In this document: one piece after another, positions 34,366-64,000 of the stretch
Numbering within the stretch: the stretch's first letter is position 1
How the letters are laid out: every line of letters begins with the position of its first letter
Assembly: GCA_903825435.1 (NCBI GenBank)
Contig: CAIKAP010000043.1
Location: 282-64,281, forward strand
Direction of reading: 5' to 3'
Length of the DNA: 64,000 nucleotides
DNA from: an uncultured Verrucomicrobiota bacterium
GTDB taxonomy: Bacteria; Verrucomicrobiota; Verrucomicrobiia; Palsa-1439
Position numbers and translations under genes: made by a program
The notes under the pieces: generated by a model
Database searches by the model: none
What the model saw: only the letters and a program-made list of their open reading frames with translations
Told to the model about the DNA's origin: nothing

Positions 34366-34707
34366 ATGAACGTAATTGAAAAGATACAGCAGGAACAACT
34401 CAGGACCGACCTCGTGCCGTTCAAGGTGGGCGACACCATCAAGGTGCACACCCGCATCAAGGAAGGCGACCGGGAACGCATTCAGGCCTTCTCCGGCATC
34501 GTGATCAACCGCCAAGGCAGCGGCATTGCCGCCAGCTTCACCGTGCGCCGCATCAGCTATGGCGAAGGCGTCGAACGTGTTTTCCCTCTTCACTCGCCCT
34601 TCATCCAGAAGATCGAGGTCGAGCGTGCCGGCAAGGTGCGTCGCTCCAAGCTCTACTACCTGCGCGACCGCGTCGGCAAGACCGCGACCAAGGTCGAAGA
34701 CGCCTAA
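34366..34707 (+). CDS. rplS: 50S ribosomal protein L19
   Basis: L19 core (…[16 protein letters not shown]…[10 protein letters not shown]…[18 protein letters not shown]…). Confidence 0.9.
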
Positions 34708-36167
34708 CGCGAGCTGCTCGTGATGGGCTGGAACGTGATCGATCGCAGATTGATCAGATACGTACTACGGCTTACACCAGGGTCAGGTTTCAATGCAATG
34801 GTCACTTGACCGTCTGGCAATCGCATCCGACCGATTATAACCTTCCGAAATGTATACCACCCATCCGTAGCCCTGAGTGTAAACTTTTTACTGTCGTCGC
34901 CGCAGGCTAGCACGACCACAGCACCACCCGACTTCAGATCTAACGCGTAGTCCAGTTCCACATCATACTCCCCTGCCCCGTTGACCGTGGTCGTCCACGA
35001 GGCGGAATCGCCGCGCGTGGACCAGTAGCCGATGTTCGGTATGCCGGTGAAAAACTCGATCTTGATTGACACCCCCTTCAAAATCGCTTCCTCAGGACCC
35101 AGTTTGAAGCCTTTCCGCTGGTCCGCCACCTGCAATATTAACGGCGGTGGCGGCGCGGGAAAAATCTTCGGTTTCTTGTTCTTCTTCCAAAACAAGTACC
35201 CAACCGGCAATAGCGCCGCAAACACCAGTATCACCACAACAATCAATACCGCCTTTTCCTCCGAATGAACTGGCTCGGGTTCCGTTACCTTCTTCGTTTG
35301 CGCAGGTACGCGCGTGACTATCCATGCCCCCGACAACGCGTAACGGACGATCTTGACGTTGGATCGCTTTCCTGACGAGGGTCGCATCTGCGCGGTCTTC
35401 TCGACCTTGATGGCTTGGTCGAAGGTGAGTCGAACGCGGCCCATACCGCGGTTGCGTAAGAACCACGGTGTTCCCAATTCAGAGTGTCGTTTCAGTTCGT
35501 GCAACAACGCGGCGCAATCAAACGACACCTGAAGCAACTCGACCCGGCCCGTGGCATCATCGAAAATGCCGTAACTGGCCTTCTCTGTGCCATCGCGCGG
35601 ATCGCCGACGGAACCGACGTTGATGATGTAGCGCGAACCGGGGGCGATGATTAGATCACGCCGATCATCCTGCGCAATCTGGCCGTCCGGGGCCAACACA
35701 AACATCCCCGCCCGGTGCGTGTGTCCGAGGAACGTGACCGGCTGGTTCGCCGCCTCGAAACAAACCCGCGCATCGTCTGCCTGTTCCACGTACCCGTACG
35801 CGTCCGGCGCAACCGTCTCGGCATGGACGAACATGATCTGGTCGCTCTCAATCTCCAGCGGCCACTCCCGCAACAGCTTCTTCCCCTCCTCGTTCACCTG
35901 CGTCATCGTCCACTCCGCCGCCTTGCGCGCCGCGTCGTTGAAAATGTCGAGGTCGAGCCAGCCGGCGACCGCCGAGTCGTGGTTGCCGAGTACGAGATTG
36001 GAGCAATACTTCCGAAGATCGGCCAACACCTGCGCTGGGTTCGGCCCGTAACCGATCGTGTCGCCGAGGCAGATGACCGCGTTGACCTCCCGTTTCAGGA
36101 AGTCGTCGCGCACCGCGCTCCACGCCTGCCAGTTCGCGTGAATATCAGAAACAATCGCGTATCGCAT
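34704..36167 (-). CDS. Fusion protein: N-terminal calcineurin-like metallophosphoesterase (PPP/ApaH-like), single TM helix, C-terminal extracytoplasmic beta-rich domain
   Basis: MPP motifs [21 protein letters not shown]; TM helix [21 protein letters not shown]; approx 190 aa C-terminal domain of unknown family. Confidence 0.7.
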
Positions 36168-36344
36168 GACTCTGCGCGATTATCCACAGATTCGCTGTCG
36201 GTGCAACCGGAACATTTCCTCCGTCGGCGACGGCAAAGAATTCAAATTTGTGGATCGGGCGGATAGAACCGGGCGATGACCACCGTGACAATCCCGCTGA
36301 AACAGGCGAGGGCGACGGCGAGAACAGGCGTACACCCGTGATAA

Positions 36345-36812
36345 TCAACTATTTTCACGGCATAGAGGTGTCGGCGGTGTTCCTCCCGACAATTGGATCA
36401 GTGTTATCGACCGGCTGTTTGAGTCATACCGGATTTGGTAGGTAGGGTGACTGTTAGGTTCAAAGAATACTTCTGATTCAATGAGTGTTTCCTGAGGGTT
36501 GACATGAACCAGTCGTGCCTTCCCTTTGCCCTCAAGAACTTTCCCATCCGATTCTTGCTTTATTGTTATGGCATCTTTATCGACGACAATCGTGTTGTCG
36601 ATTGCTGGCACATCAATGGTATTGCCGTTAATGCGAATCGCATTCCCATCTTTGTCCCGCATTGAGTAGGATGAAGTTTGTCCTGAAAACGTTCCGATAC
36701 ACATCTCAGGAATTGGTTCTTGTTTGACAGACATATTCTTACCCCCAGTTGGTTGCGATTCTCCACACCCAGAAAGCAACAGCGTGAGGACAAATGTTCC
36801 GACCGAAATCAT
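36345..36812 (-). CDS. Hypothetical lipoprotein
   Basis: Lipobox LLLSGC after a signal peptide; inside the low-GC islet. Confidence 0.5.
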   Translation of the reverse strand: MISVGTFVLTLLLSGCGESQPTGGKNMSVKQEPIPEMCIGTFSGQTSSYSMRDKDGNAIRINGNTIDVPAIDNTIVVDKDAITIKQESDGKVLEGKGKARLVHVNPQETLIESEVFFEPNSHPTYQIRYDSNSRSITLIQLSGGTPPTPLCRENS

Positions 36813-36900
36813 TCCACACCAGTTCAGTTTCAATTGGATGTAGTTGTTTTGTCCCGCGCACATGTTGCTTCCTAGTCGCTTCTACACGGGCGTCACACCT

Positions 36901-51956: not shown

Positions 51957-52130
51957 ATTTTAATGCCCTGTCCTTCAACTTCATCGAGCTCAACGCCGGT
52001 TAAGCGCCAATGCGCGCATCTTCATAGACGGATGGCGGTTCATAAAGGTTACAACACCGCACGCCGCGATAAGTTCTGTAACCTTTTACCGAGGACCTGC
52101 GTCTCATGGAGGTGAAAGGAAATAGGATTG

Positions 52131-52613
52131 ATGACAACCACAAACAAAGTTCTAATTGGAGCGGGGTTGATTATAGCCCTGACAGTAGGCGGGTTCTTTA
52201 CCGTGATGGCGCGCGCCGAGGGCGAAGGCCACAGACATGGCCTATTCACGATGTTGCGGGCGGCGTTTCATCGTGCGGGTGTAACAAAAGAGCAGGGTGA
52301 CCAGATTAAAGCGATCCTCAGCAAGCACCAGACGGAAATCAAACCCTTGATGGATCGAATGGTAGCTGAGCGCCGCGCATTGCGCGACCTGATCCAGACT
52401 GAAAGCGTGGACGAGAAGGCGATCCGCAACGAAGTCAATAAACTCGCCACTATTGGCGCTGATCTCGCCGTCAAACGCGCCTACATCGCACACGAAGTTC
52501 GCGGTGTCCTCACCAGCGACCAGATCGGTAAACTCAAAGAGATGCAGGCTAAACACGACACACACGTGGACGAAATCCGCGACCGGATTGCCGCGCACAT
52601 CAAAGGAGAGTAA
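52131..52613 (+). CDS. Periplasmic Spy/CpxP-family (LTXXQ motif) protein
   Basis: Signal anchor; LTSDQIGKL-type LTXXQ motifs; helical, charged. Confidence 0.6.
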   Translation: MTTTNKVLIGAGLIIALTVGGFFTVMARAEGEGHRHGLFTMLRAAFHRAGVTKEQGDQIKAILSKHQTEIKPLMDRMVAERRALRDLIQTESVDEKAIRNEVNKLATIGADLAVKRAYIAHEVRGVLTSDQIGKLKEMQAKHDTHVDEIRDRIAAHIKGE

Positions 52614-52618
52614 TCCAA

Positions 52619-53071
52619 GTGAAAAAACACCTAGCAAGCTTGATGATCCTGACACTCGCAGTGGCGGCGCGTGGTGCCGAAGTGGACAGCCCGAAGTTCG
52701 AGGCCGTTGAGCAATTCGTTACCGAAAAACTCGATGGCGTCGCTGACCTCTCAAGTGATCAGCGCGACAAAATCCGCACGCTGATCCGCGAGCAGCTTCC
52801 GTCCTTGAAAAAGCTCGTCACGAAGGCTGAAGACGAACAGCGTGCGCTGCTCGAAACAATCGGCAGCCCGACCGTGGACGAGAAATTAATTCGTACCCAG
52901 ACCACCAAGCTCGCTGATGTACTCGTGGACTACACCACACAGCGTGCTAAACTCACAGAGAGCCTCAAGGGCGTATTGACCCCCGAACAACTCGACAAGG
53001 CTCAACAGGACATACCGGCCACCCTCGCAAAGTTCGTGAACGAGATTGCTAAGCTCCTGACCAAGGAGTAG
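52619..53071 (+). CDS. Periplasmic Spy/CpxP-family (LTXXQ motif) protein, paralog
   Basis: GTG start; signal peptide; LTPEQLDKA motif. Confidence 0.6.
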   Translation: MKKHLASLMILTLAVAARGAEVDSPKFEAVEQFVTEKLDGVADLSSDQRDKIRTLIREQLPSLKKLVTKAEDEQRALLETIGSPTVDEKLIRTQTTKLADVLVDYTTQRAKLTESLKGVLTPEQLDKAQQDIPATLAKFVNEIAKLLTKE

Positions 53072-53081
53072 AACCGGCGCG

Positions 53082-53630
53082 ATGAGCGCGCAGACCGGAG
53101 AACTGACCGATGAACGCCTCATTCAGTCCACCCTCACGGGCGACGATGAGGCGTTTGCCGCATTGGTCGTGCGCTACAAACGGCGCATCCTTGGCATTGC
53201 CGCACGGTTCACGCGCTCCGAGGCCGAGTTGGACGATCTGTGTCAGGAGATTTTCATTAAGGTATACCGGCACCTCGCCAAGTTTCGCGGCGAAGCACCG
53301 TTCGAACACTGGCTCTCCCGCATCGGCATACGTGCCTGCTACGATCACCTGCGCAAGACTCGCCACGATCGCAACGAAATGGCGTTGGACGACGTCGAAC
53401 TGGCCTGTGCCGATGATGTTTCTCCAAAACGCGCCCGCGAGGTGCTGGATTTCGCACTGGCGAAACTCTCCGCGGAGGAGCGTCTCGTGATCACGTTGCT
53501 TGAACTGGAGGAACGCACCGTGGAGGAGATCGCCGAATTAACCGGCTGGAGCCAATCGAATGTAAAAATTCGGGCCTATCGCGCCCGTCGGGCGCTAAGA
53601 ACTATTTTGGAGACTCACCATGAACGATGA
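53082..53630 (+). CDS. ECF-subfamily RNA polymerase sigma-70 factor
   Basis: Sigma70 regions 2 and 4 (…FIKVYRHLAKFRG…, …TVEEIAELTGWSQSNVKIRAYRAR…). Confidence 0.9.
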   Translation: MSAQTGELTDERLIQSTLTGDDEAFAALVVRYKRRILGIAARFTRSEAELDDLCQEIFIKVYRHLAKFRGEAPFEHWLSRIGIRACYDHLRKTRHDRNEMALDDVELACADDVSPKRAREVLDFALAKLSAEERLVITLLELEERTVEEIAELTGWSQSNVKIRAYRARRALRTILETHHER

Positions 53631-53916
53631 CCAACTCAACAACCTGTTCGCTGCCGCCCGCAAGGCGCAGCCCGATACCAAACGCACCCAGTTCGCATTC
53701 GAGACGCGTCTATTGGCGCGCCTCCGCGCTGAACGCGATCCGGGTATCGCGTGGTGGTTTTGGACTCGACGGCTCGCGCCGCTATTCGCCGCGATCGTGC
53801 TGGGGCTCGGCGCGTGGAACTTTGTAGCGCTCAACGAGGCGAGTACCGATTGGCAATCGGTCATCGCCGGAAACCACGATGACAACGAGACGGTCGCGTT
53901 GTTCGATGGACAATGA
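53620..53916 (+). CDS. Putative anti-sigma factor (single TM)
   Basis: 11-nt overlap with the sigma factor gene; short N-terminal cytoplasmic region, one TM helix (LAPLFAAIVLGLGAWNFV). Confidence 0.55.
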   Translation: MNDDQLNNLFAAARKAQPDTKRTQFAFETRLLARLRAERDPGIAWWFWTRRLAPLFAAIVLGLGAWNFVALNEASTDWQSVIAGNHDDNETVALFDGQ

Positions 53917-53917
53917 C

Positions 53918-54280
53918 ATGAAAAAGTGGAAAATTATCCTCGGCATCACCGCAGTGTTCCTGCTCGGCATGGTTGCGGGCGGGCTGCTGACCATCCGCCT
54001 CGAACGTCGCTTCGCCTTGCACGGCCCGGACGCTTGGGCGCGGTTGGTCATCCGTCGTCTGAACTGGGAGCTGCGGCTCGACCCGTCGCAGCGCGAGCAG
54101 TTGCGCGACATCGTCACCACGGCGCAGCAGGAAATGAAACTCGTCCACGAACAGAACCAGCCGCAGATTCGCACGGTGTTGGAGCGCGCCAAAGACCAAA
54201 CCCGCGCGATGTTGCGGCCCGATCAGCAGGCAAAATTCGACAAGCTGATCGCTGACAGGCATCAGAAGTGGACGCCGTGA
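53918..54280 (+). CDS. Small signal-anchored periplasmic protein, Spy-like helical repeat (LRPDQQAKF)
   Basis: Starts 2 nt after the anti-sigma stop; N-terminal TM/signal; LXXXQ-like motifs. Confidence 0.5.
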   Translation: MKKWKIILGITAVFLLGMVAGGLLTIRLERRFALHGPDAWARLVIRRLNWELRLDPSQREQLRDIVTTAQQEMKLVHEQNQPQIRTVLERAKDQTRAMLRPDQQAKFDKLIADRHQKWTP

Positions 54281-55026
54281 TTGCCTTGCTCACCGTAGCC
54301 ATGCTGTCTGTGACAAACCTCACGTGGCACGATGCCACGCGTGACCGGGATATTCCGGTGAAGATTTACGCTCCCACTGGCGCGACGAATGCGCCATTGA
54401 TTGTGTTCTCGCACGGGCTGGGCGGAACGCGCGAAGGCTACGCCTACCTTAGCCAACACTGGGCCAGCAACGGCTATATCAGCGTTCATGTCCAGCATCT
54501 CGGCAGTGATGATGTGACGTGGCGCGGCAAGTCCGACAGACTCGGTTCGATGCGCCAAGCCGTCACCGCCGAAAACGCTCGCAATCGGCCGATCGACATC
54601 AGTTTTACCATCACGCAGATGCTTGGTGACCCGCGCGTCAACACCAACGTCATCGGCGTTGCTGGTCATTCGTTTGGCGCGCAGACAACGTTACTCATCA
54701 TTGGCGAGACCGTCCTTGGTAAAAGTTACCGTGACCAGCGAGTTTCGGCGGCCATCTCAATGTCATCCGGTAGCATGACACCGTCATCGTTTCGAGCTGT
54801 TACGACCCCATGTCTACATCTCACTGGCACGAAAGACCAAGGTATTGTCATAACCGACATCAAGTCAGTGGACCGCCGGTTTGCCTTCGACAACATCAGT
54901 GCTCCCGGCCGATGCCTCATCACCCTGAACAATGCCACGCACATGACCTTCGCCGGCGCAGGCACAACGACACACTTGGATTTGATTCGCGAAACTCACC
55001 ACCAAGTTTTGGAATGCCTACCTTAA
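54268..55026 (+). CDS. Alpha/beta hydrolase (dienelactone hydrolase / PAF-acetylhydrolase-like), C-terminus probably frameshifted
   Basis: GHSFG nucleophile elbow, HGLGG oxyanion region. The typical C-terminal tail (…FWNAYLKHDAAAQAWLSDGG…) continues in the +1 frame up to approx 55137. Confidence 0.7.
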   Translation: MDAVIALLTVAMLSVTNLTWHDATRDRDIPVKIYAPTGATNAPLIVFSHGLGGTREGYAYLSQHWASNGYISVHVQHLGSDDVTWRGKSDRLGSMRQAVTAENARNRPIDISFTITQMLGDPRVNTNVIGVAGHSFGAQTTLLIIGETVLGKSYRDQRVSAAISMSSGSMTPSSFRAVTTPCLHLTGTKDQGIVITDIKSVDRRFAFDNISAPGRCLITLNNATHMTFAGAGTTTHLDLIRETHHQVLECLP

Positions 55027-55094
55027 ACACGATGCAGCGGCGCAGGCGTGGCTATCGGATGGCGGTTTAGAGAAACTTGTCGCAACTAACGGTG

Positions 55095-57396
55095 TTATAG
55101 AAAGCAAGAAACCGACCCAAAAGGAAAAACAGTCATGAGAAACATCAACCGCGCCCTACTGACCGCAGCCATGGTGTGCTGCGCCATGACCTTGAAGCCT
55201 GTCGTCCGTGCCGAAGGCGACGCCAGCACCAAGTCTGCAACGGATGCCACCAAGCCCGCCGGCGGCGGGGAACGGGGCGAACGTTTCCGTGAGCGGATGA
55301 AAGAACTGTCTGAGAAGCTTGGCTTGACTGAGGAACAGAAAGAAAAGCTCAAGCCAATCTTCCACGCGGAAATGGAAAAGTTGAAGGAGTTGCGCGCCGA
55401 CACCAAGTCGCCGCGCGGTCCCAACACAACCACGTGCACCACTTCGTAAGGGAGATCGGCAAGCGGTTGCAACGCGGCCACCAGCGATTCAGGACTGTTG
55501 ACGGTTTTCCCGCGCAACAACTTCGTCGGCGTCACACCATCGAGCTTGTCAATCGCCTCCTGCCGCGTCTCCGGATTCGCCCGCCATACCGCCACGTCCG
55601 GATTCACCGCCTTCCCGTTCGCCGGATCCGTGTTCGCTACTGCGGCATTGGCTTCGCGTTCGGATCGTCCACCCAACGCTCCTCCTGCACCGCGTACTTG
55701 AACCCCTTTCCCGCCTGCAACGGTTTCACCTTCGGCGACGGAACCAGTTTTTCCAGCGGCGCGCCCTTCGGCAAGCCGCCCATCGGTTGTATCGGTTTCG
55801 AGTCCATGATTCTCCTTTACCACATCGCCCGGAACTTCTCCCTTGAAAACATCGGCTTTCGTGAGTATGGTTTTGCCATAGCCTGATTGGGAGTAAACTG
55901 TGGGCAATTGGAGCCCACGAGTCAGAAACCAATCACGGCTCTTATCTTTATCCCAATACCGCAATCGCCCTTCTTCCATCCATCGTCCAAATGCAGCGTT
56001 GTCGTCTTTTCCGTAGGCACTGGCGACACGGTTGATCTCGTAAGCACCAGCGCGTTGATCCAGATGCACCGCCGCCACCAACGTCTTGCCGTTGTACTCC
56101 AGTTGCGTCATCACCACCAACGCATTGCCCCCGCGACTCGAACCAAACACCATCAACGGATCAGCGAGTGCGGTCGGAAGTTGCTTCAGCATTCCCACTG
56201 GCACCCCATGCTTTAGGGCATTCACGTCTTTGCGGATTGTCCCCGCCGCCATCGTCATCGCCAACGGACGCGCTCCTAATGCCTGTAACACGGCAGGAGT
56301 CTCGCCAATCGGCACCTGCACCTTCTCATCCAATGATTCAAGCGCCCGATCCACCAACGGCGAGAATTCCTGTTCTTCCTGTTTCGCCCGCGTCAGTTCA
56401 TTTGCCAGCGACTTCACGCCATACCCCGGCCCCGTTTCCCGCAACGTCCCGCTCTCCTCCGGTGGTAATTCACCACCGGCCTCCGTCAGGTCGCGCACCG
56501 CCTTGTACCGCTCCAGCAACTTCGTCAACGCTGCCGCGCCTGCCTCCCGATCCGTCGACACAAAATACCGCTGCTTGAAATTGATGTTCTCACCAAACAG
56601 CCCGAACTTCTCCATCTGTTTTTCACTGGGAGGTTCATACCCGTAATCCAACTCGACGCGCTGCTCGCCGTGGACTCGGCTTTGCGTCAGCTTCCAGCCG
56701 TTGTCCAACTCGATCTCCGATCCGCCCCCCTGCACCATGTCGAATATCTCGCCCGGCGTCGCATCCTTCAGCGGCGTACCGATCCCTAGCCGTTGCTTCA
56801 ACGCCGTCACCGCGTCCGGGTTCACCAGCAACCCGACCAGGTTGCGCCCATCATTCGTTTTCACGCGGACAATCTTGTTGCCTACGTCGCCCGTGTGAAA
56901 CACCTTGTCGTAAATCGGGAACACCGCGCCCGTCAGCATCGCCGCCGTCTGCGTCCTGTAATCCGGCAACGCCGCCAGTTCCTTCTCCCACAACTTTTGC
57001 GCTACTGTCCCACGGATCGGTTCGTTGTGATGGTACTCTTCGGCGCCGTACTCAAACCTATTCACCACGTGCGACTTCGCCGCTGGTGACGTGAGAACGT
57101 ACTGCGTCTTGCCATCCGAGTTCACCCGTTCCCGCGCCAGGTACACGCGACCACTCTGTTTGTTCCGAGCGAATGTCACCTTCGACGGCTCCCGCTTGTT
57201 CGCCGCCTGCGCCGATCTCCACGTCCCCCGTGATCCGCACCAGCATGTCCACCGGGTACACGTCCGTCTTCAACCGCTTCCGCGCATCCGTAACAGCCTT
57301 GCACTTGTCCGACAGCGCCTTCGATAACGCCAACACCTCCGCGTCTTCGAGTCCTTCACATACCGCCCTCGCGTTCTCCTTGGATTTCTTGCCCAT
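55095..57396 (-). pseudogene. Phage-associated large protein (approx 700 aa), apparently frameshifted near its 5' end; the ORF's last approx 110 codons (55095-55428) are read-through, not real coding sequence
   Basis: The 694-aa ORF (55095..57179) plus a 112-aa ORF (57058..57396) in another frame that starts 55 bp after the TerL-C stop; the C-terminal approx 110 aa are low-complexity and overlap the Spy-like gene. Confidence 0.45.
55135..55449 (+). CDS. Spy/CpxP-like LTXXQ periplasmic protein, probably 3'-truncated at a mobile-element junction
   Basis: Signal peptide; LTEEQKEKL motif; ends in a non-homologous tail (…RGPNTTTCTTS) that overlaps a phage-derived ORF on the opposite strand. Confidence 0.45.
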   Translation: MRNINRALLTAAMVCCAMTLKPVVRAEGDASTKSATDATKPAGGGERGERFRERMKELSEKLGLTEEQKEKLKPIFHAEMEKLKELRADTKSPRGPNTTTCTTS

Positions 57397-57450
57397 ATAC
57401 CCGTTCCCTTAGCAAGTTGGATTCCGACTTATTTAGAAATCTCCAATCCC

Positions 57451-58455
57451 TCATCCTTCCCCCGGCCGCGCCAGCCCCGTCCATCCGCTTTGCAAAGGCT
57501 TCCTCCGTCCTGCCTCCACCAATCCCAGATCCAACCGATTCATCTCCACACGCTGGACCCGTTTCCCATCCTGCACGACGAACTTCAACCGGAAGATGTT
57601 CGCCAGCGCGTACCGGAACGCATCGCAGATATGCTCGTAAAACCCATCCTTCAGCGGGAACCCGTCCTTGTCGCGCACCAAGCCGTTTCTCAACCCGTCC
57701 ACCAGGTGCTTGCAGTCCACCGGGTCAATCTCCAGCCAGCCCGCCTTAATCACCCACTGCACGATCTGAATCCCTTCGTCCACCGACATATCCCGCCACC
57801 GCGCATAAACGCCCCTCGTTTGCAGAACCTCGATGGAAGTGTCCGGTGAGCGGTCATCGTGCTGGTTTCCCGCCGGGTCGCAATAGTCCTCAATTCGCGC
57901 CCCTGGACATACGTTCGTCGCAAACGGTAGGACGTGTTTGTCAGCAAACTCGTCCACCAACAGTTCCCGCGCTATCACTTCCTTTAACGCATACACTCGA
58001 AACGTGCCGTCCTCCCTCGATTCAACCTGTAGGTGAATCGCCGCAGGCATCCTCCAACCAAAATCCCAACCGCGAAACAACGTCAACCACGGCCGATACA
58101 CCTGGGGACGCACCGTCACGCTGCCGAAATCGCAATAGACCGGCTTCCCTGGTGTGACGGTGAAGTCAATCCCGTACTCCTGCCGCCGAGAATAGATCGG
58201 CATGTCCTTCGATATATCGCCCACATACGCCCTCCCCTTCTCCGTCAGTGGAGACTTGTCTTTGTCCGCAGTGTGATGCAGCCTCACGTGCACGAACCCA
58301 TTGCGTTCCCACCGATTGATCCCGTACGCCACATGTTCGGCGCCGAGCTTCGCGCCATTCTCACGCTGCCACCAATGCGAATCCAGCAAGTCCGCCGACG
58401 TCGCCGGATCAACCACCGCATCCTTCACCGCCACGAGTTTTTTTCGCATACTCAC
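57451..58455 (-). CDS. Phage terminase large subunit, C-terminal nuclease half
   Basis: TerL nuclease-domain pattern (…CDPAGNQHDDRS…; acidic catalytic residues); ATGA overlap with the N-terminal half. Confidence 0.7.
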   Translation of the reverse strand: MSMRKKLVAVKDAVVDPATSADLLDSHWWQRENGAKLGAEHVAYGINRWERNGFVHVRLHHTADKDKSPLTEKGRAYVGDISKDMPIYSRRQEYGIDFTVTPGKPVYCDFGSVTVRPQVYRPWLTLFRGWDFGWRMPAAIHLQVESREDGTFRVYALKEVIARELLVDEFADKHVLPFATNVCPGARIEDYCDPAGNQHDDRSPDTSIEVLQTRGVYARWRDMSVDEGIQIVQWVIKAGWLEIDPVDCKHLVDGLRNGLVRDKDGFPLKDGFYEHICDAFRYALANIFRLKFVVQDGKRVQRVEMNRLDLGLVEAGRRKPLQSGWTGLARPGEG

Positions 58456-59174
58456 CCCGTCACGTCGTCATAGCCGAGTTGGCAGAATAGGTTGTTCGCG
58501 CCCTTTGCCGAACTCATCATCGTTAACTTGCCGTTCCCCGCCAGAGCCGGACGGACCGCCGTCCACACCTTCTCCTGATTCTCCGTGCTCCCCGCCTCGT
58601 CCCACAAATAGAACGCGAACTTCCACTGCCTCGCCTGTTCCGATCCCTCCGGTACTCCCACAATGAACGAGTCCGGATTCTTGCCGTGTTTGATCGTGAT
58701 GATCCCGTCACTCCGATTGTGATACGCTTCAGGCCGCGCAAACCGAGATGGAATCCTCCGCCACATAAACAGGAACCGGCTGTCCAAAAAGATATTCGCA
58801 TCGAGCAGCTTCTTGCTTTGGTAGCCGATGTAAATGCCGGGAATCGTGAGCGCCGCATGCAGATGCACACCCGCCGCCCACCACGTCGCGATCATATCCC
58901 GCGACTTTTCGACGCGGAGACGGTTTGTTCCTTGCCACTGGCGCGTCAGGTACTCCAAATACTCCGCGTCGGGAAACGGCTGTACCGGCTCGATGTGTTT
59001 GAAATGTGCGAACTCGTCGTTCGTGAACGTGGCCGTTGTTAGATACTCCCACGGATCAGACGGCAACGGCTCCTGCCCTGCCGTCACGAACTTCGACAAC
59101 TCAGCCAACGCTTGGCGCCGAAAGCTCTCCGACAATCGCGTCGAACAGGATGGACTTGCACTTAGAACAGGCAC
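58452..59174 (-). CDS. Phage terminase large subunit, N-terminal ATPase half
   Basis: Deviant Walker A of TerL (…LRVEKSRDMIAT…), Walker B/coupling FYLWDEAGS; stops where the nuclease ORF starts. Confidence 0.65.
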   Translation of the reverse strand: MPVLSASPSCSTRLSESFRRQALAELSKFVTAGQEPLPSDPWEYLTTATFTNDEFAHFKHIEPVQPFPDAEYLEYLTRQWQGTNRLRVEKSRDMIATWWAAGVHLHAALTIPGIYIGYQSKKLLDANIFLDSRFLFMWRRIPSRFARPEAYHNRSDGIITIKHGKNPDSFIVGVPEGSEQARQWKFAFYLWDEAGSTENQEKVWTAVRPALAGNGKLTMMSSAKGANNLFCQLGYDDVTG

Positions 59175-59703
59175 ATCTTTGGATCACAAGCGCGATGCGT
59201 TCCGACCACGCCTTCGCCGCCACCTCGATCTCCACTCGATCCTTCAACTTGCCCGTCAGTTTGTAGAAGAGTTCCACCGCCCGCAACTGCGTGTCGTTGT
59301 CCGTGTGGTCGCCCAGGGACAGCGCCTGATAATACTTCGTCACCTTCGCGTCGATCAGGTCGGAGTGTTTCGCCACCACCCGCTCATCCGTCAGCCCCTT
59401 CTCCGTCAACAGGTCCTCAATCCGCCGCTGCACCTTCGGATTATCGAACGTCCGCTTCTGTTGCTTCTCCGCCGTCGACCGTTTGTACCCGCCCTTGCGC
59501 ATCGCCTCCGCCTTGTTCCCCTTCGCGTCGCCAACGAACGCCACCGCCGTCCGCTCCTGCTTCAATGGCAACTGTGCACGCGCCTTCACAACTCCGCACC
59601 GCGCCGGTTTCCGCCGCGCCGCCCGCTTCTTGCCAACTTGACCGATTTGCCGTTTTGCCGATTTGCCTATTTGTGTTCGTCCCATGCCCATCCTGTATAG
59701 CAA
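59101..59703 (-). CDS. Phage terminase small subunit
   Basis: TerS pattern (…GYKRSTAEKQQKRTFDNPKVQRRIEDL…ERVVAKHSDLIDAKV…); lies upstream of TerL. Confidence 0.65.
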   Translation of the reverse strand: MLYRMGMGRTQIGKSAKRQIGQVGKKRAARRKPARCGVVKARAQLPLKQERTAVAFVGDAKGNKAEAMRKGGYKRSTAEKQQKRTFDNPKVQRRIEDLLTEKGLTDERVVAKHSDLIDAKVTKYYQALSLGDHTDNDTQLRAVELFYKLTGKLKDRVEIEVAAKAWSERIALVIQRCACSKCKSILFDAIVGELSAPSVG

Positions 59704-60014
59704 CTACCACTCCGACCTCGCACGGAACACTCCGCGGGAACGTTTCGCGACACTCACTTGACAACACCAATTTCCCCGAGCGCACGTGTATCTCCCTCCC
59801 ATCAACCGCCGGCCCCACCACACCAGAGATGAGCTAAGCTGACCTTGTGGCCTCTCACCACCTACTTTCACCTACAATTTTATTACCACTATACCAAAAC
59901 TATACCGTGTACCCAACCCAACAGACCGATTTCCGCCGACCTGTGCAGACTCGTTTAGAACCATCAGGCTCCGCCATTCTCCCTCGTAAAAACACCCATC
60001 TTGCGTGATGCAAA

Positions 60015-60155
60015 ATGGTAACGAAAAAAGGCTGGTACGCCAAAGGCGGACACGTTAGAACCATTGACGGCATTATAGACTGGTTGCACGAGTTTTGGAA
60101 GCTCCGAGAAGTGTTCGCTGCGGACCCGGTGATGGCGAAGTTGCTGGCCGCATAA
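60015..60155 (+). CDS. Small ORF (46 aa) encoded inside copy 1 of a 141-bp direct repeat
   Basis: MVTKKGWYAKGGHVRTIDGIIDWLHEFWKLREVFAADPVMAKLLAA; a near-identical 40-aa coding segment recurs at 62579-62701 without its own ATG. Confidence 0.3.
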   Translation: MVTKKGWYAKGGHVRTIDGIIDWLHEFWKLREVFAADPVMAKLLAA

Positions 60156-60173
60156 CGGCGTCATCCGACGATG
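60033..60173. repeat. 141-bp imperfect direct repeat, copy 1 (approx 88-90% identical to 62579-62719)
   Basis: tggtacgccaaaggcggacacgttagaacca…ccgacgatg is shared by both copies. Confidence 0.8.
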
Positions 60174-60225
60174 ATGAAAGGCTGACCGATTGCATTGCGC
60201 TGAGCAAGTATCGTGCACTCCAGCG

Positions 60226-60927
60226 CTAGATTCCGATGCCTTTGCTGCGGTTTTGTGTATGCGCTTTCCGAATGGACGCGAAAGGGCTGATGGCCGATGC
60301 AATTCTTGGAATCATTTTGACCGATTCGACCTTGGCACTTTCCTTGGTCAAGTATTCACGAACGCCAGTTGGCATGGTGGCAAGAGTCGGCTCGCCGTAG
60401 TAGGCCAGCGCTTTGAGTGAGAGGACGGGGTTGAACTCAGGATACAGTGCTTTGGTTGCTCCCAGGGCATCGGGCAAGGTGATCCCGGCTTTCAGGAGCG
60501 TGTAAATGTCGGAGTAATCTTTTGGTTCGGCGCGGACCAAAATCACTTTCATCTTCTGGGCCGCCAGATCAAGAAGCGACGCGATGCAAACGTGATTGTC
60601 CTCGCAGCGGTCAGGTCGGCCAACGCGGCCAATGGTCAGGCCACCGAAGAATGAGACTTTGATCGCTCCGCCCCGATCGACGGTGAACGTGGCGGTGTTG
60701 GGCTCGGATTGGATTAGCTCTGCGCCGTCGAGGAATGCCAAGCTCCGGCCCAAAACGTCCGCCGAAACAGGACGGTTCGTGAAGAAATCGAAATCCACCG
60801 ATTGTCTCCCGCCCAAACGCAGGGCAACGGCGGTTCCCCCATACAAAACGAAATGATCAGGGATTTGAGAAAGTTCCGGCCACAAGCGTCGCTGCTCTGC
60901 CGGGAGAGTGTCAAGACGCGGCCTCAT
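60226..60927 (-). CDS. Nucleotidyltransferase AbiEii/AbiGii-family toxin (type IV TA / abortive infection)
   Basis: AbiEii pattern (…FVLYGGTAVALRLGGRQSVDFDFF…, …DYSDIYTLL…); start at MRPRLDTL…. Confidence 0.7.
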   Translation of the reverse strand: MRPRLDTLPAEQRRLWPELSQIPDHFVLYGGTAVALRLGGRQSVDFDFFTNRPVSADVLGRSLAFLDGAELIQSEPNTATFTVDRGGAIKVSFFGGLTIGRVGRPDRCEDNHVCIASLLDLAAQKMKVILVRAEPKDYSDIYTLLKAGITLPDALGATKALYPEFNPVLSLKALAYYGEPTLATMPTGVREYLTKESAKVESVKMIPRIASAISPFASIRKAHTQNRSKGIGI

Positions 60928-61259
60928 GTGGGGATAGCGCGCTGGGGTGGCGGGGGAACAGGGAGAAGATGCAACCGGTGGTGCCAGTAATGCCACGAAC
61001 GGTTGTCAAAAAGACCGGGCGGGGCGGATCGCAACGCTTCACGGAATACAGATTTACCATGATGATCGAGGACAAAACAGATGTCCGCCCACGTTCCGAA
61101 CACCATGACCCGGCAGAGAAAAATCGGGGTGTTATCAAGCGTTGTGTCAGCGGATTGCCACCAGCACACCCGCCGCGCGATGGAGGTCAGCCGTTCAGAA
61201 CCCTTTTCTGTTGTCAGCGTGTTCTTCACAACTTTTTGGATCCAACAGAAGTATAACAA
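60924..61259 (-). CDS. Putative cognate antitoxin of the AbiEii-like gene (unrecognised family)
   Basis: The ORF stop overlaps the AbiEii start as ATGA; start site uncertain; weak coding signal. Confidence 0.25.
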   Translation of the reverse strand: MLYFCWIQKVVKNTLTTEKGSERLTSIARRVCWWQSADTTLDNTPIFLCRVMVFGTWADICFVLDHHGKSVFREALRSAPPGLFDNRSWHYWHHRLHLLPVPPPPQRAIPT

Positions 61260-61401
61260 ACCGGGCGTGAATGTCGAGCTTGGCTCTGTGCAACAGATGC
61301 GGTGCGATGAATGGGCAGCGCATCGGCATTCGGGACAAGAAGGTTTCCGCGATCAAATTGCCGACGCTTGACACCCGGTAGCGTTATGCTACCTTTTTGG
61401 C

Positions 61402-61785
61402 ATGAGCCAACCTGTAAAACTTTCCGATGCACTGGTCTTGGACGCCCGACTGGCCGGAGAAACGGTCGAACGCTCCATCGCGGGACAAGTGGAATTCTGG
61501 GCAAAAATCGGCAAGGCCATTGAGCCGTTACTTCAGGGCACGCAGGTGCTCGCCTTGTGTCGGAATGCCGCCACGCGCCCGCTGTCCGACTGCCTGAAAT
61601 CCGTGGATTCGCCCGCCGGGCGCCACCGCGTGACAGAGTTTCTCCAAGAGCAGCCCTGGCCACACTACGAACCGCACCCGCATCAAGCTGGCGTGCTCGT
61701 CCGCACTGAAGCCGACGGGAAACGCACGGTCGGGCGATTCGTCAACCGCCAGTTCCAGCCGGTCAAGTTGAAAGCCACGAAGTGA
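61402..61785 (+). CDS. Putative antitoxin partner of the zeta-type toxin
   Basis: 127-aa ORF whose stop overlaps the zeta toxin start (ATGA). Confidence 0.4.
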   Translation: MSQPVKLSDALVLDARLAGETVERSIAGQVEFWAKIGKAIEPLLQGTQVLALCRNAATRPLSDCLKSVDSPAGRHRVTEFLQEQPWPHYEPHPHQAGVLVRTEADGKRTVGRFVNRQFQPVKLKATK

Positions 61786-62393
61786 TGAGCTCCGACATGC
61801 GTCGCGAGTCCAAGGCGGACCTGCTGCTCGACCGCCGTCCGGTCCTTGTCGCGCTCGCGGGGCCGAATGGCGCGGGTAAAACCACTTTTTACCACGCCCA
61901 TCTCCAGCCCGCCGGGCTGCGGTTCATCAACGCCGACGTACTGGCGCGGGAACTGAACCTCGATCCCTACGCGGCTGCTCACGTGGCCGAGGCGCTCCGG
62001 CGTCAACTGGTGGAACAGCGCGAGAGTTTCGTGTTTGAAACCGTGTTCTCCGATCCGGTTGGCGACAAGCTGACTTTCCTGAAAGAAGCGGCAGCAAAAG
62101 GCTACACCGTTGTTCTGTGCTTCATTGGACTCTCCGGGCCGGCAGTCTCGGAAGCGCGTGTCGCCATGCGCGTCTCGCAAGGCGGACATGATGTGCCGGC
62201 CGAAAAGCTGGTCGCACGGTTCCCCCGCACATTGGCGAACCTCAAGACCGCCATTCGCGAACTGCCGCACGTGTGGATTTTCGACAACGACGATCTGCGC
62301 ACCCCGTTCCGTCAGGTTGCTGTTTTCGAGAACGGCCAGCAGGTGATCCTGAATAAGCCGGCGCCCGAGTGGCTGCGGCCGTTGTTGGCTTAG
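61782..62393 (+). CDS. Zeta-toxin family P-loop kinase (short AAA_33/zeta type)
   Basis: Walker A LAGPNGAGKTT; zeta/AAA_33-like length (203 aa) and motif order. Confidence 0.75.
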   Translation: MMSSDMRRESKADLLLDRRPVLVALAGPNGAGKTTFYHAHLQPAGLRFINADVLARELNLDPYAAAHVAEALRRQLVEQRESFVFETVFSDPVGDKLTFLKEAAAKGYTVVLCFIGLSGPAVSEARVAMRVSQGGHDVPAEKLVARFPRTLANLKTAIRELPHVWIFDNDDLRTPFRQVAVFENGQQVILNKPAPEWLRPLLA

Positions 62394-62578
62394 AATTGCG
62401 TTCCTCACCTGCCGTCGCGAGGTCGTTTTCGCGGTGCAAGTCAGCGAGCCGGCCGAGACGCCACCCAAGACCACCAAGTAGTGGTGAAGAAGGCGAGAGT
62501 GAATGTTGCCAAGGCGCACTCGCAAATCGATCACCGGATCTTGGTGGATGCGATGAAGACAGTCGTGTTCGACAGCAG

Positions 62579-62719
62579 TGGTACGCCAAAGGCGGACACG
62601 TTAGAACCATCGACGGCATTATCGACTGGCTACGCGAGTTTTGGAAGCTCCAAGAAGTGTTCGCGGTGGACCCGGTGACGGCAAAATTGCTGGCCGCATG
62701 ACGGCATCATCCGACGATG
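62579..62719. repeat. 141-bp imperfect direct repeat, copy 2
   Basis: Same unit as 60033-60173; the two copies bracket the AbiEii/zeta cassette. Confidence 0.8.
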
Positions 62720-62804
62720 TTTGCCGAGGCGATTGACGCTGGCACAGTCGCGTTCGGCGGCGGCTCTGTGGCGGGGCTTCTTTAGAAAGAAAAACTTGGC
62801 CTGC

Positions 62805-63203
62805 TCAAGCCAAGAGCGGCTTGAAACCGGCCTGTTCAAAATGCCGGTCAGCAGTGAGAGCTTCGTGAATGTCTGCGTCCTTCATCGCCACGAAAGAGGT
62901 GCAATCGGTGAGCGACCAGTTTTTGTCCGCCCGACTGGCGAACAGGTCCAAGCCGCGCTGCAACAGACGTGAATCGAGTGGCACGATGGTTGACCGCTGA
63001 CTGGCGCGAATTCCGGCGACCATGGCCAAATAATCGGCGTGATCTTCCGCGCGACCGCACGCGTTGCCCAATTCGAGGATGATGAACTCGGTGGTGAGGA
63101 TGGAACGGCTGGTCTTGGATGCCGCCAGTGCCCGGTCGTGCAATGGATCGCGCGCGTCCAGAAGCGCCAGATAAAACGACGTGTCGGCAAACGCGACGCT
63201 CAT
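62805..63203 (-). CDS. vapC: PIN-domain ribonuclease toxin VapC
   Basis: PIN acidic residues (…FADTSFYLALLD…, …TTEFIILE…, …DCTSF…). Confidence 0.85.
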   Translation of the reverse strand: MSVAFADTSFYLALLDARDPLHDRALAASKTSRSILTTEFIILELGNACGRAEDHADYLAMVAGIRASQRSTIVPLDSRLLQRGLDLFASRADKNWSLTDCTSFVAMKDADIHEALTADRHFEQAGFKPLLA

Positions 63204-63493
63204 GTCCGCTTGGGAACGCCGTACAAGTAGTGGTCCAGATTGCCAGCGTAGCCCTTCGGCCAGTGGGGACGCGGCTTGGCGACTTTGAGGACCGCCGCGA
63301 CAAACGGATCATCCTCCGGTCGCAACCCCTCCGGGACGACTTCCACCGCAGTCCCGTCCGCCAACTTGGCATCGGCGGGGAGGACCACCACGCCATTCTT
63401 GACTGTTCCTTTGTAGGTCACGCCCAACTTGTAGCGCGAATCGACTCCAGAAGCAAGCCGGCAGAAAACCTGTCGCCGTCGCGTCTCACCCAA
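63200..63493 (-). CDS. vapB: VapB-type antitoxin (AbrB/SpoVT-like swapped-hairpin); start uncertain
   Basis: 4-nt overlap with the vapC start; N-terminal …GTVKNGVVVLPADAKLADGTAVEV… resembles the AbrB/MazE fold; the ORF table start is a TTG next to the tRNA. Confidence 0.5.
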   Translation of the reverse strand: MGETRRRQVFCRLASGVDSRYKLGVTYKGTVKNGVVVLPADAKLADGTAVEVVPEGLRPEDDPFVAAVLKVAKPRPHWPKGYAGNLDHYLYGVPKRT

Positions 63494-63495
63494 AT

Positions 63496-63571
63496 TGGTA
63501 CCCCCAAGGGGAATCGAACCCCTGTTCTCAGATTGAGAATCTGATGTCCTAGGCCACTAGACGATGAGGGC
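63496..63571 (-). tRNA. tRNA-Glu (anticodon CUC)
   Basis: Reverse complement GCCCTCA TC GTCT AGTGGCCTA GGAC A TCAGA TTCTCAA TCTGA GAAC AGGGG TTCGATT CCCCT TGGGGGT A CCA; arm layout closely parallels E. coli tRNA-Glu. Confidence 0.9.
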
Positions 63572-63647
63572 GCTCAAGCACTTGCGAAAACCGGGGGACT
63601 CTCCGGGGGACTTGACACAGAAGCGTATATCATTATCTTCAGATGCC

Positions 63648-64000
63648 ATGAGCAATCTCAAGAAGGTCTCGACTAATTTGTACCGGGATGTCCGCACGGG
63701 GATATATTACTGCATCATCCGCAGGGGTGGTGCAAGAATAAAAGAGAGCCTCAACACCCGTGAACGGACTCTTGCATCGGCCCGTCTCCATGATCGGCTT
63801 TCCGAACTGCCCGACCGCACTGCCATCGCCTCCGCCGATGCCACGTGGGATGCCGTTAAAAGACTGTATATTGACGTTCTTGCAAAACTCGCTTTTGCGG
63901 GCTTTTTCGGCGATGGATTTGAACGGGATGCAAGGGGAAGCGTCTCAGAGTTATGCATGAACTGACCGCGATCTTCCACCATCTTCAACGCCATCTTTTC
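63648..64000 (+). CDS. int: Tyrosine-type phage integrase, N-terminal part (continues beyond window end)
   Basis: Integrase N-terminal arm/SAM-like pattern (…LYRDVRTGIYYCIIRRGGARIKESLNTRERTLASARLHDRLSEL…); adjacent to the tRNA. Confidence 0.65.

Follow-up and report, generated by a model that had tools for sequence, protein, structure and literature searches.

A phage packaging remnant, three predicted toxin-antitoxin modules and a repeated gene end in accessory DNA of an uncultured Verrucomicrobiota bacterium

AbiE systems (AbiEi/AbiEii) are type IV toxin-antitoxin and abortive-infection systems with DUF1814 nucleotidyltransferase toxins, of which MenT is an example, and AbiEii-type enzymes carry out nucleotidyl transfer. 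Of the other toxins that concern us here, zeta is a P-loop kinase and VapC a PIN-domain RNase. Integrative elements whose target is a gene 3' end may carry a replacement for it, and an attP inside a phage gene is known from the integration-dependent immunity of mycobacteriophages and from the partition of SSV-type integrases. Strawberry-notch-like ATPases and MuF-C domains are described components of the polyvalent proteins of phages and plasmids, in which Sno-helicase and MuF-C occur in combination and serve the invader and not the host (PMC5512222). Here we compare with these systems the region 55430-64000 of a 64,000-nucleotide (nt) stretch of DNA from an uncultured Verrucomicrobiota bacterium (the window; contig CAIKAP010000043.1, ERZ1426827). 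The window is nearly all of its 64,290-nt metagenome contig, which ends 9 nt past the window end.

Composition and variability of the region

A first-pass annotation had read 55430-64000 as a defence island or integration hotspot of stacked and decayed mobile elements. Our analysis makes it likely that the region is a patchwork of accessory DNA that arose in several events and is mostly decaying, and that it consists of a phage remnant, three toxin-antitoxin modules and a 141-nt direct repeat, which we call rep40. We thereby keep the stacking, the decay and the variability of the earlier reading and drop its defence island, for which PADLOC gave only a sub-threshold AbiEii. As we reconstruct it, 55452-59703 would be a 4.3-kb dead packaging remnant of a tailed phage, fused to a truncated LTXXQ gene and made up of a small terminase subunit (TerS), a large terminase (TerL) in two open reading frames (ORFs), a scar ORF and part of the interior of a polyvalent protein delivered by the virion. 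The stretch 60033-63493 would hold three intact, translationally coupled modules, namely a helical protein with AbiEii, a ParD-like protein with zeta, and VapB with VapC. Two of these modules, that of AbiEii and that of ParD/zeta, lie between the two direct rep40 copies, where recombination would shuffle them as cassettes. The modules are compact and complete, and those of AbiEii and ParD/zeta also occur in other genomic contexts; they may persist through addiction, their loss being toxic, while their phage neighbours decay. Overall, we regard the region as an ordinary decayed mosaic of modest novelty, the novelty lying in the AbiEii partner family and in rep40 as a junction element. Its features, with the evidence for each in parentheses (aa, amino acids), are as follows.

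55135-55449, plus strand: gene of an LTXXQ/Spy-like periplasmic protein, 104 aa, apparently 3'-truncated, at the left border of the foreign DNA (~55420-55450) (Pfam LTXXQ E 0.0025, Metal_resist E 0.022)
55452-57179, minus strand: internal fragment of a phage-type polyvalent protein (Pfam MuF_C E 5e-25; phrog_616; BLASTP)
57058-57396, minus strand: 112-aa ORF of unrecognised origin, overlapping the polyvalent fragment at its start (no family match; single-member cluster)
57451-58455, minus strand: nuclease half of TerL, 334-aa ORF (PHROG large-terminase families 5653, 10250 and 2)
58452-59174, minus strand: ATPase half of TerL, 240-aa ORF (tblastn to the TW1 large terminase, residues 7-230)
59101-59703, minus strand: TerS (Pfam Terminase_2 E 1.5e-6; phrog_51 E 1.8e-9)
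60033-60173, plus strand: rep40 copy A, an orphan 40-codon gene end with its stop codon and ~18 nt
60226-60927, minus strand: predicted AbiEii-family nucleotidyltransferase toxin, 233 aa from the ATG at 60927, in an ORF open to 60996 (Pfam PF08843 E 1.3e-13, 51.9 bits against a cut-off of 22.5)
60924-61259, minus strand: ~100-aa helical AbiEii partner, not annotated and distantly DUF6922-like (66 homologues; AlphaFold)
61402-61785, plus strand: predicted ParD-like antitoxin, 127 aa (Pfam ParD_like PF11903 E 4.5e-13)
61782-62393, plus strand: Zeta-toxin-family P-loop kinase, 203 aa (Zeta_toxin PF06414 E 1.8e-13; AAA_33 E 1.6e-7)
62454-62573, plus strand: possible, weak remains of a purU-like gene 3' end (tblastn with the PurU-like protein of contig L050)
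62579-62719, plus strand: rep40 copy B, with no start codon available upstream
62805-63203, minus strand: predicted VapC PIN-domain toxin, 132 aa (Pfam PIN PF01850 E 4e-8)
63200-63421, minus strand: candidate antitoxin at the VapB position, 73 aa, in an ORF open to 63493 (position; 4-nt overlap with VapC)
63496-63571, minus strand: tRNA-Glu (CTC), its 3' end facing the region (ARAGORN; Rfam tRNA 60.5 bits)
63648-63874, plus strand: integrase-like N-terminal stump of ~75 codons, cut at 63874 in this strain (motif)
63875-64000, no strand: unrelated sequence in place of the rest of the integrase-like ORF

Variants were compared among contigs (numbered with the prefix L) that are 88-100% identical to the window and whose encoded proteins are identical or nearly so. 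They fall into at least five structural variants, and breaks lie at 58727, 59215, 61367, 62916 and 63874. Because contigs of close relatives differ structurally at these breaks, the locus is variable, as the first-pass annotation had supposed, and not invariantly syntenic. Contig L010, which is 94% identical over 61367-63327, breaks at 61367, and there the C-terminus of DnaE (HHH_6, OB fold, DNA_pol_IIIA_C) lies directly left of ParD/zeta; it keeps ParD/zeta-rep40-VapBC and lacks the AbiEii module, rep40 copy A and the phage remnant. This arrangement implies that parts of the region have separate histories. L009 and L023 (99.7% identical) depart from the window at 58727 and 63874, and L024 (99.8%) does so at 59215, where TerS is abutted by an IS66 transposase lacking its N-terminal part (L024 2-685), and at 62916, inside VapC. 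In L040 and L043 (88-91%), rep40 stands immediately upstream of ParD/zeta and the AbiEii module is absent; L040 has no repeat between zeta and VapC, and L043 has different genes after zeta. Across Verrucomicrobiota loci, ParD/zeta is found on either side of rep40. The left junction (which recurs in L001-L003), both repeat junctions and the VapBC-tRNA part were each recovered in assemblies made independently (ENA, JGI and Logan), at 100% identity. The mosaic is therefore real and its junctions are not assembly artefacts.

The named protein homologues come from Verrucomicrobiota metagenome-assembled genomes. GC content at 55-64 kb (0.53-0.65) is not distinct from that of the remaining window, and the strongly negative GC skew at 55.5-60 kb is explained by the minus-strand gene block there. 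Left of ~55,430 the genes are chromosomal (an ECF sigma factor, LTXXQ paralogues and a hydrolase); a search of species-representative genomes for synteny, with the flanking hydrolase as query, found no relative. We note that 52128-55449 holds three LTXXQ/Metal_resist paralogues around the ECF sigma factor, with two small ORFs and the PAF-AH-like hydrolase; it looks like an envelope-stress cluster of which the third LTXXQ copy is the truncated border gene. Farther left, ~90 nt at 36225-36319, intergenic between ORFs 34704-36179 and 36345-36881 in the chromosomal part, match L043 1442-1582, downstream of zeta, in two overlapping pieces of 81-88% identity, and this may be a short dispersed repeat.

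The phage remnant and the toxin-antitoxin modules

The proposed terminase remnant with disrupted genes was confirmed, in that TerS is present and TerL is split. TerL is one 1611-nt gene in phage TW1 and also one gene in MW202477; here the 240-aa and 334-aa ORFs meet at 58452-58455 with a frame change between them, and the same split is seen in a second assembly. The tblastn matches of the 334-aa ORF are large terminases of uncultured Caudoviricetes, in their nuclease half; a search of viral contigs for relatives of this half found none. At 58440-58455 (minus strand), the break adjoins a run of seven A residues, GTGAGTATGCGAAAAAAACTC; a causative indel was sought in TerL and not located. Two points weigh against our reading at this end of the region: the TerL split could in principle be a genuine two-gene arrangement, and the truncation of the LTXXQ gene depends on paralogues that are only 17-24% identical to it. 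Compared with these paralogues (52128-52613 and 52619-53071), the ORF at 55135-55449 aligns without the C-terminal ~55-70 residues, in agreement with the truncated chromosomal gene that had been placed at the left edge; its protein cluster contains no intact longer form. Among the genes of the region, the phage contributes TerS, the split TerL and the polyvalent fragment, and no portal, capsid, tail or lysis gene was found. An intact or inducible prophage would have all of these and an undivided large terminase.

The 694-aa ORF that begins at 57179 had been put forward as a possible unrecognised defence gene. Its sole family matches are MuF_C and phrog_616, the latter covering positions 1695-1877 of 2793. 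By BLASTP, residues 3-232 correspond to residues 776-998 of P0004, a 1004-aa protein with the PF13872/PF13871 domains of a Strawberry-notch-type helicase; they are thus its last ~225 aa, and on this alignment the ATPase core of the helicase is wholly missing. Residues 244-497 correspond to residues 577-837 of the 914-aa LPD3+MuF_C protein P0002. Over its last ~118 codons, which extend to 55095, the frame reads the LTXXQ gene in antisense. On these alignments, the ORF is best described as a doubly truncated remnant of a polyvalent (counter-defence) protein, lengthened by chance, and as neither a real gene nor an unrecognised defence gene. A phage-type polyvalent protein would join a MuF-C hub to further effector domains in a single long chain; here MuF_C and the C-terminal end of the helicase are present and both ends are truncated, so the ORF is a remnant rather than a functional member. 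The 112-aa ORF that overlaps its start is probably a deletion or fusion scar. The closest full-length MuF_C relative, the 914-aa protein, lies at 10001-12745 of L018-L020 among ordinary chromosomal genes, beside an ABC-ATPase-like gene and a 525-aa unknown, with no phage genes visible.

The toxins of the AbiEii, zeta and VapBC modules named in the first-pass annotation were all found by Pfam profile searches. In their translations, all three toxins keep their catalytic motifs, and each overlaps its partner by 4 nt. Direct reading of AbiEii gives an hGG...DxD motif, and that of VapC gives four acidic residues. As in VapBC systems generally, the PIN toxin follows an overlapping upstream gene (overlap 63200-63203); this VapB-position ORF belongs to a cluster of 19 members and has no family match. 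The ParD_like and Zeta_toxin ORFs likewise overlap by 4 nt; the kinase is of the P-loop type expected of the toxin in epsilon/zeta and PezAT systems, and its antitoxin is of neither the epsilon nor the PezA type.

AbiEii resembles AbiE in its AbiEii/DUF1814 toxin domain and in an overlapping bicistronic arrangement that is conserved across genomes. Its partner ORF (60924-61259) overlaps AbiEii by 4 nt and has 66 homologues at 56-88% identity, mostly of ~100 aa. In three unrelated contexts (L031-L037), a partner homologue stands directly upstream of a 216-219-aa AbiEii gene, the pair being packed tightly between housekeeping genes. The partner has no Pfam match, eight of 25 of its homologues match DUF6922 weakly, and its AlphaFold model (predicted local distance difference test, pLDDT, 87) has six helices and no match in the PDB at E<=0.001. 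From the model and these searches, the partner is judged not to be a canonical AbiEi, which would have a winged-helix N-domain and a C-domain (Pfam AbiEi_1/3/4); it is instead a candidate new antitoxin family. The ORF was never called in public annotation, where a 96-aa ORF is called on the opposite strand (61081-61371, plus); this is the antisense of the conserved partner gene and probably spurious.

That the three modules and the 694-aa protein form a functional defence island, that is, a set of active anti-phage systems at a hotspot, is in our view unlikely, even though an AbiEii-family toxin is present, all three toxins look intact and the locus is variable. The PADLOC check that the first-pass annotation had called for, run on 10 proteins, returned no convincing defence system: its AbiEii models matched 60226-60927 below threshold (E 7.6e-4 to 0.01), and a defence island would cluster at least two recognised systems. 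The partner of AbiEii differs from a canonical AbiEi, the 694-aa ORF turned out to be a phage fragment, as described above, and ParD/zeta and VapBC are generic type II toxin-antitoxin pairs. A limit that also touches our own patchwork reading is that the toxicity of the three pairs is putative, as are their neutralisation and any effect they may have on phages.

The rep40 repeat

The first-pass annotation had noted repeat-bounded cassettes. The repeat is there, as a direct repeat of 141 nt whose two copies are 91% identical (0 such matches expected by chance), but it is not a generic boundary: both copies are orphan copies of one 40-codon gene end. The plus-strand frame reads WYAKGGHVRTIDGIIDWL...KLLAA and then stops, and seven of the 12 codons that differ between copies A and B are silent, a stop-to-stop change included. 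A profile built from the two copies retrieved 12 protein clusters at E<1e-10 from 1.84 billion representative proteins, all of them short ORFs (45-125 aa) with the conserved 40 residues at or near the C-terminal end; a word-based homologue search with the 46-aa ORF of copy A recovered only itself. A degenerate DNA pattern of rep40 matched 17 metagenome loci (L038-L054), and nothing in GTDB genomes or viral contigs. Across 17 distinct copies, variation has the pattern of coding sequence, with entropies of 18.6, 15.5 and 36.2 at the first, second and third codon positions. The octamer GTTAGAAC is nucleotide-invariant in every copy, in the window (60054-60061 and 62600-62607) as in all 17 loci, and spans wobble positions and a rare AGA codon. 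This suggests a constraint at the DNA level besides the coding signature, for example a recombinase core.

The homology starts at the identical codon in every copy. Mean pairwise identity is 0.27 over the 15 nt upstream and 0.81 over the first 60 nt, a sharp 5' boundary, and downstream it fades gradually. L045, L048 and L051 have an identical rep40 core and downstream flank behind three different upstream sequences. In six loci (L041, L044, L046, L047, L049 and L050), the upstream gene is a single-domain response regulator, itself after a purU-like gene (given specifically for L046, L047 and L050). In L038 (cut by an insertion sequence), L053 (frameshifted) and L048 (tail only), it is the 3' end of a decayed integrase-like gene, which in L038 and L053 reads in frame into rep40. 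In the other loci, the upstream DNA is unrelated. No tRNA-Glu was found near rep40 at loci other than the window. In the window itself, 62454-62573 aligns with the C-terminal 42 residues of the PurU-like protein from L050 (42% identity, E 0.05), ending 5 nt before copy B; this possible relic is weak but positionally striking.

A real small gene of 46 aa in two copies, in place of a recombination relic, would account for the codon-position signature and the conserved stop codon, and copy A does have an ATG and a public annotation (46 aa, 60015-60155, plus). We nevertheless consider it quite unlikely, since copy B and several homologues, L040 among them, have no start codon ahead of the conserved W, the N-terminal extensions of all database 'proteins' are mutually unrelated with no upstream ORF conserved, and the homology begins at exactly the same codon everywhere. 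The ATG of copy A appears fortuitous, and the public 46-aa ORF is probably a spurious, 5'-truncated copy of rep40. A structured RNA or attC-like element was rejected as well: rep40 has no Rfam match, and its minimum free energy against shuffled controls gave z between -0.5 and +1.1 on both strands. With no fold beyond controls and no Rfam match, rep40 is neither an attC-like hairpin nor an RNA gene. A PDB search with rep40 found nothing.

We conclude that rep40 is probably a recombination (att-like) relic that marks junctions at which the neighbouring DNA changes. In its most likely reading, an integrative element carries this gene 3' end as the identity segment of its attachment site, although exchange at rep40 could be either site-specific or homologous. 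A more specific proposal, which we put forward tentatively and think doubtful as it stands, supposes that Verrucomicrobiota have a family of small integrative cassettes, not described before, for which rep40 is the attachment site. On the same tentative footing, the crossover would fall within a gene 3' end, which may be that of the integrase-like gene of the element itself. Integration might then detach a 40-residue tail ending in -LLAA, so that each cassette would have an orphan tail as the mark of its left end. Equally speculative is that toxin-antitoxin pairs are swapped between rep40 sites and that the native site lies behind the conserved purU-like/response-regulator locus.

Several observations count against the attachment-site reading. 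Among the 1.84 billion representative proteins, no intact gene ending in rep40 was found; the integrase-like genes that adjoin rep40 in L038, L050 and L053 were recognised by neither Pfam nor PDB searches, and no recombinase has been shown to act on rep40. The L050 copy belongs to a larger duplication of ~1.6 kb. L040 and L043 do not share the same junction between the right-hand side of rep40 and ParD/zeta, so deletion or homologous exchange fits them as well as site-specific recombination does.

Two further loci deserve mention. In L050 (6895-12712), two rep40 copies 4.5 kb apart flank a large serine recombinase (Resolvase, Recombinase and Zn_ribbon_recom domains) and a 370-aa integrase-like gene; the rep40 copy, the next gene, for a secreted protein, and part of a 636-aa gene are duplicated together. 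In L038 (5713-6492), an ORF that by eye resembles an IS3/rve-type transposase cuts the integrase-like gene. The idea that rep40 forms the tail of the serine recombinase in L050 was rejected (hhalign probability 5.9%). The tyrosine-recombinase nature of the L038, L050 and L053 genes, which had no Pfam or PDB match, is putative and read by eye from motifs.

The tRNA-Glu border and comparison with described systems

At the right edge, where a tRNA next to an integrase had been reported, the tRNA-Glu (CTC) is secure, but the integrase amounts to an unrecognised stump of ~75 codons and there is no att repeat derived from the tRNA. As read in the window, the integrase-like ORF runs over 63648-63965 and ends after 105 codons; the variant in L009/L023 continues past 63874 with '...WDAVEKLYIETELPSRRLKPRS', in L009 with an integrase-like 'LPSRRLKP' stretch. 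Its putative identity as an integrase comes from motif; searches of Pfam and NCBIfam gave no match even at E 5, and tblastn of its N-terminus against plasmids gave none.

The tRNA's 3' end faces the region and the start of the integrase-like ORF adjoins the tRNA, as might be expected if the region were a single genomic island that the neighbouring integrase had inserted at tRNA-Glu and that had since degraded. We hold such an origin to be very unlikely. The ORF sits 5' of the tRNA and points out of the region, whereas a tRNA-targeted island would have an intact integrase inside it next to the tRNA and a distal repeat of the tRNA 3' end. No copy of at least 11 nt of that end was found elsewhere in the region (query 63470-63600), nor does the window hold such a direct repeat. 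Moreover, L010 keeps ParD/zeta-rep40-VapBC with dnaE in place of the phage and AbiEii parts. We therefore treat the tRNA-Glu and the stump as neighbours of the region, not shown as agents of its assembly.

An integron-like array, with the 141-nt repeats as attC and the right-edge ORF as integron integrase, is largely refuted and scarcely credible: direct repeats in one orientation separate toxin-antitoxin cassettes, their boundary is sharp on one side and the integrase-like ORF diverges from the VapBC side, but the repeat has no hairpin palindrome or fold beyond shuffled controls on either strand, no R'/R'' core pair is seen in it, its codon-position signature is clear, Rfam finds nothing and the stump matches no profile. 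Hardly any weight can be given to metagenome mis-assembly, for which speak the metagenomic origin of the contig and the stop of all assemblies at ~64000, since the junctions match at 100% in the independent assemblies. All assemblies end within ~10 nt of 64000, and because every one stops there, this suggests a multicopy element beyond that position.

The region illustrates how toxin-antitoxin modules may outlive the mobile DNA around them, and how a long ORF in a decayed region can be an artefact of decay; the public calls on this contig of 657/694-aa, 46-aa and 96-aa ORFs do not appear to reflect real genes. AbiEii-family toxins in Verrucomicrobiota have a conserved ~100-aa helical partner that current annotation misses, and rep40 offers a landmark for tracking cassette exchange in uncultured Verrucomicrobiota.

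Among described systems, AbiE shares with the AbiEii module the AbiEii-family toxin with hGG...DxD, the upstream partner overlapping by 4 nt and the form of a mobile two-gene unit, whereas the partner here is a ~100-aa all-helical protein with faint similarity to DUF6922 in place of the winged-helix AbiEi, and the PADLOC matches fall below significance. Like epsilon/zeta and PezAT, the second module has a Zeta_toxin/AAA_33 P-loop kinase with a Walker A motif behind an overlapping antitoxin gene, but the antitoxin is ParD-like (PF11903). The third agrees with type II VapBC systems in its PIN toxin with four acidic residues and its overlapping small upstream gene, and differs in an antitoxin candidate outside known families. 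In common with cryptic prophage remnants, the phage part has terminase genes with a lesion that breaks the frame, no longer has those for portal, capsid, tail and lysis, and has a truncated host gene fused to it; only 4.3 kb are left, with neither att sites nor an integrase that can be linked to it. Unlike the polyvalent proteins of Iyer et al. 2017 (PMC5512222), the fragment is an internal piece of ~575 aa without ATPase core or true C-terminus, yet it keeps their order of a Strawberry-notch-type helicase end followed by MuF-C. Finally, while neither an intact rep40 gene, an active integrase nor a circular form was seen, rep40 shares with elements that target gene 3' ends a coding 3' end, a sharp 5' boundary, direct repeats and adjoining ends of integrase-like genes.

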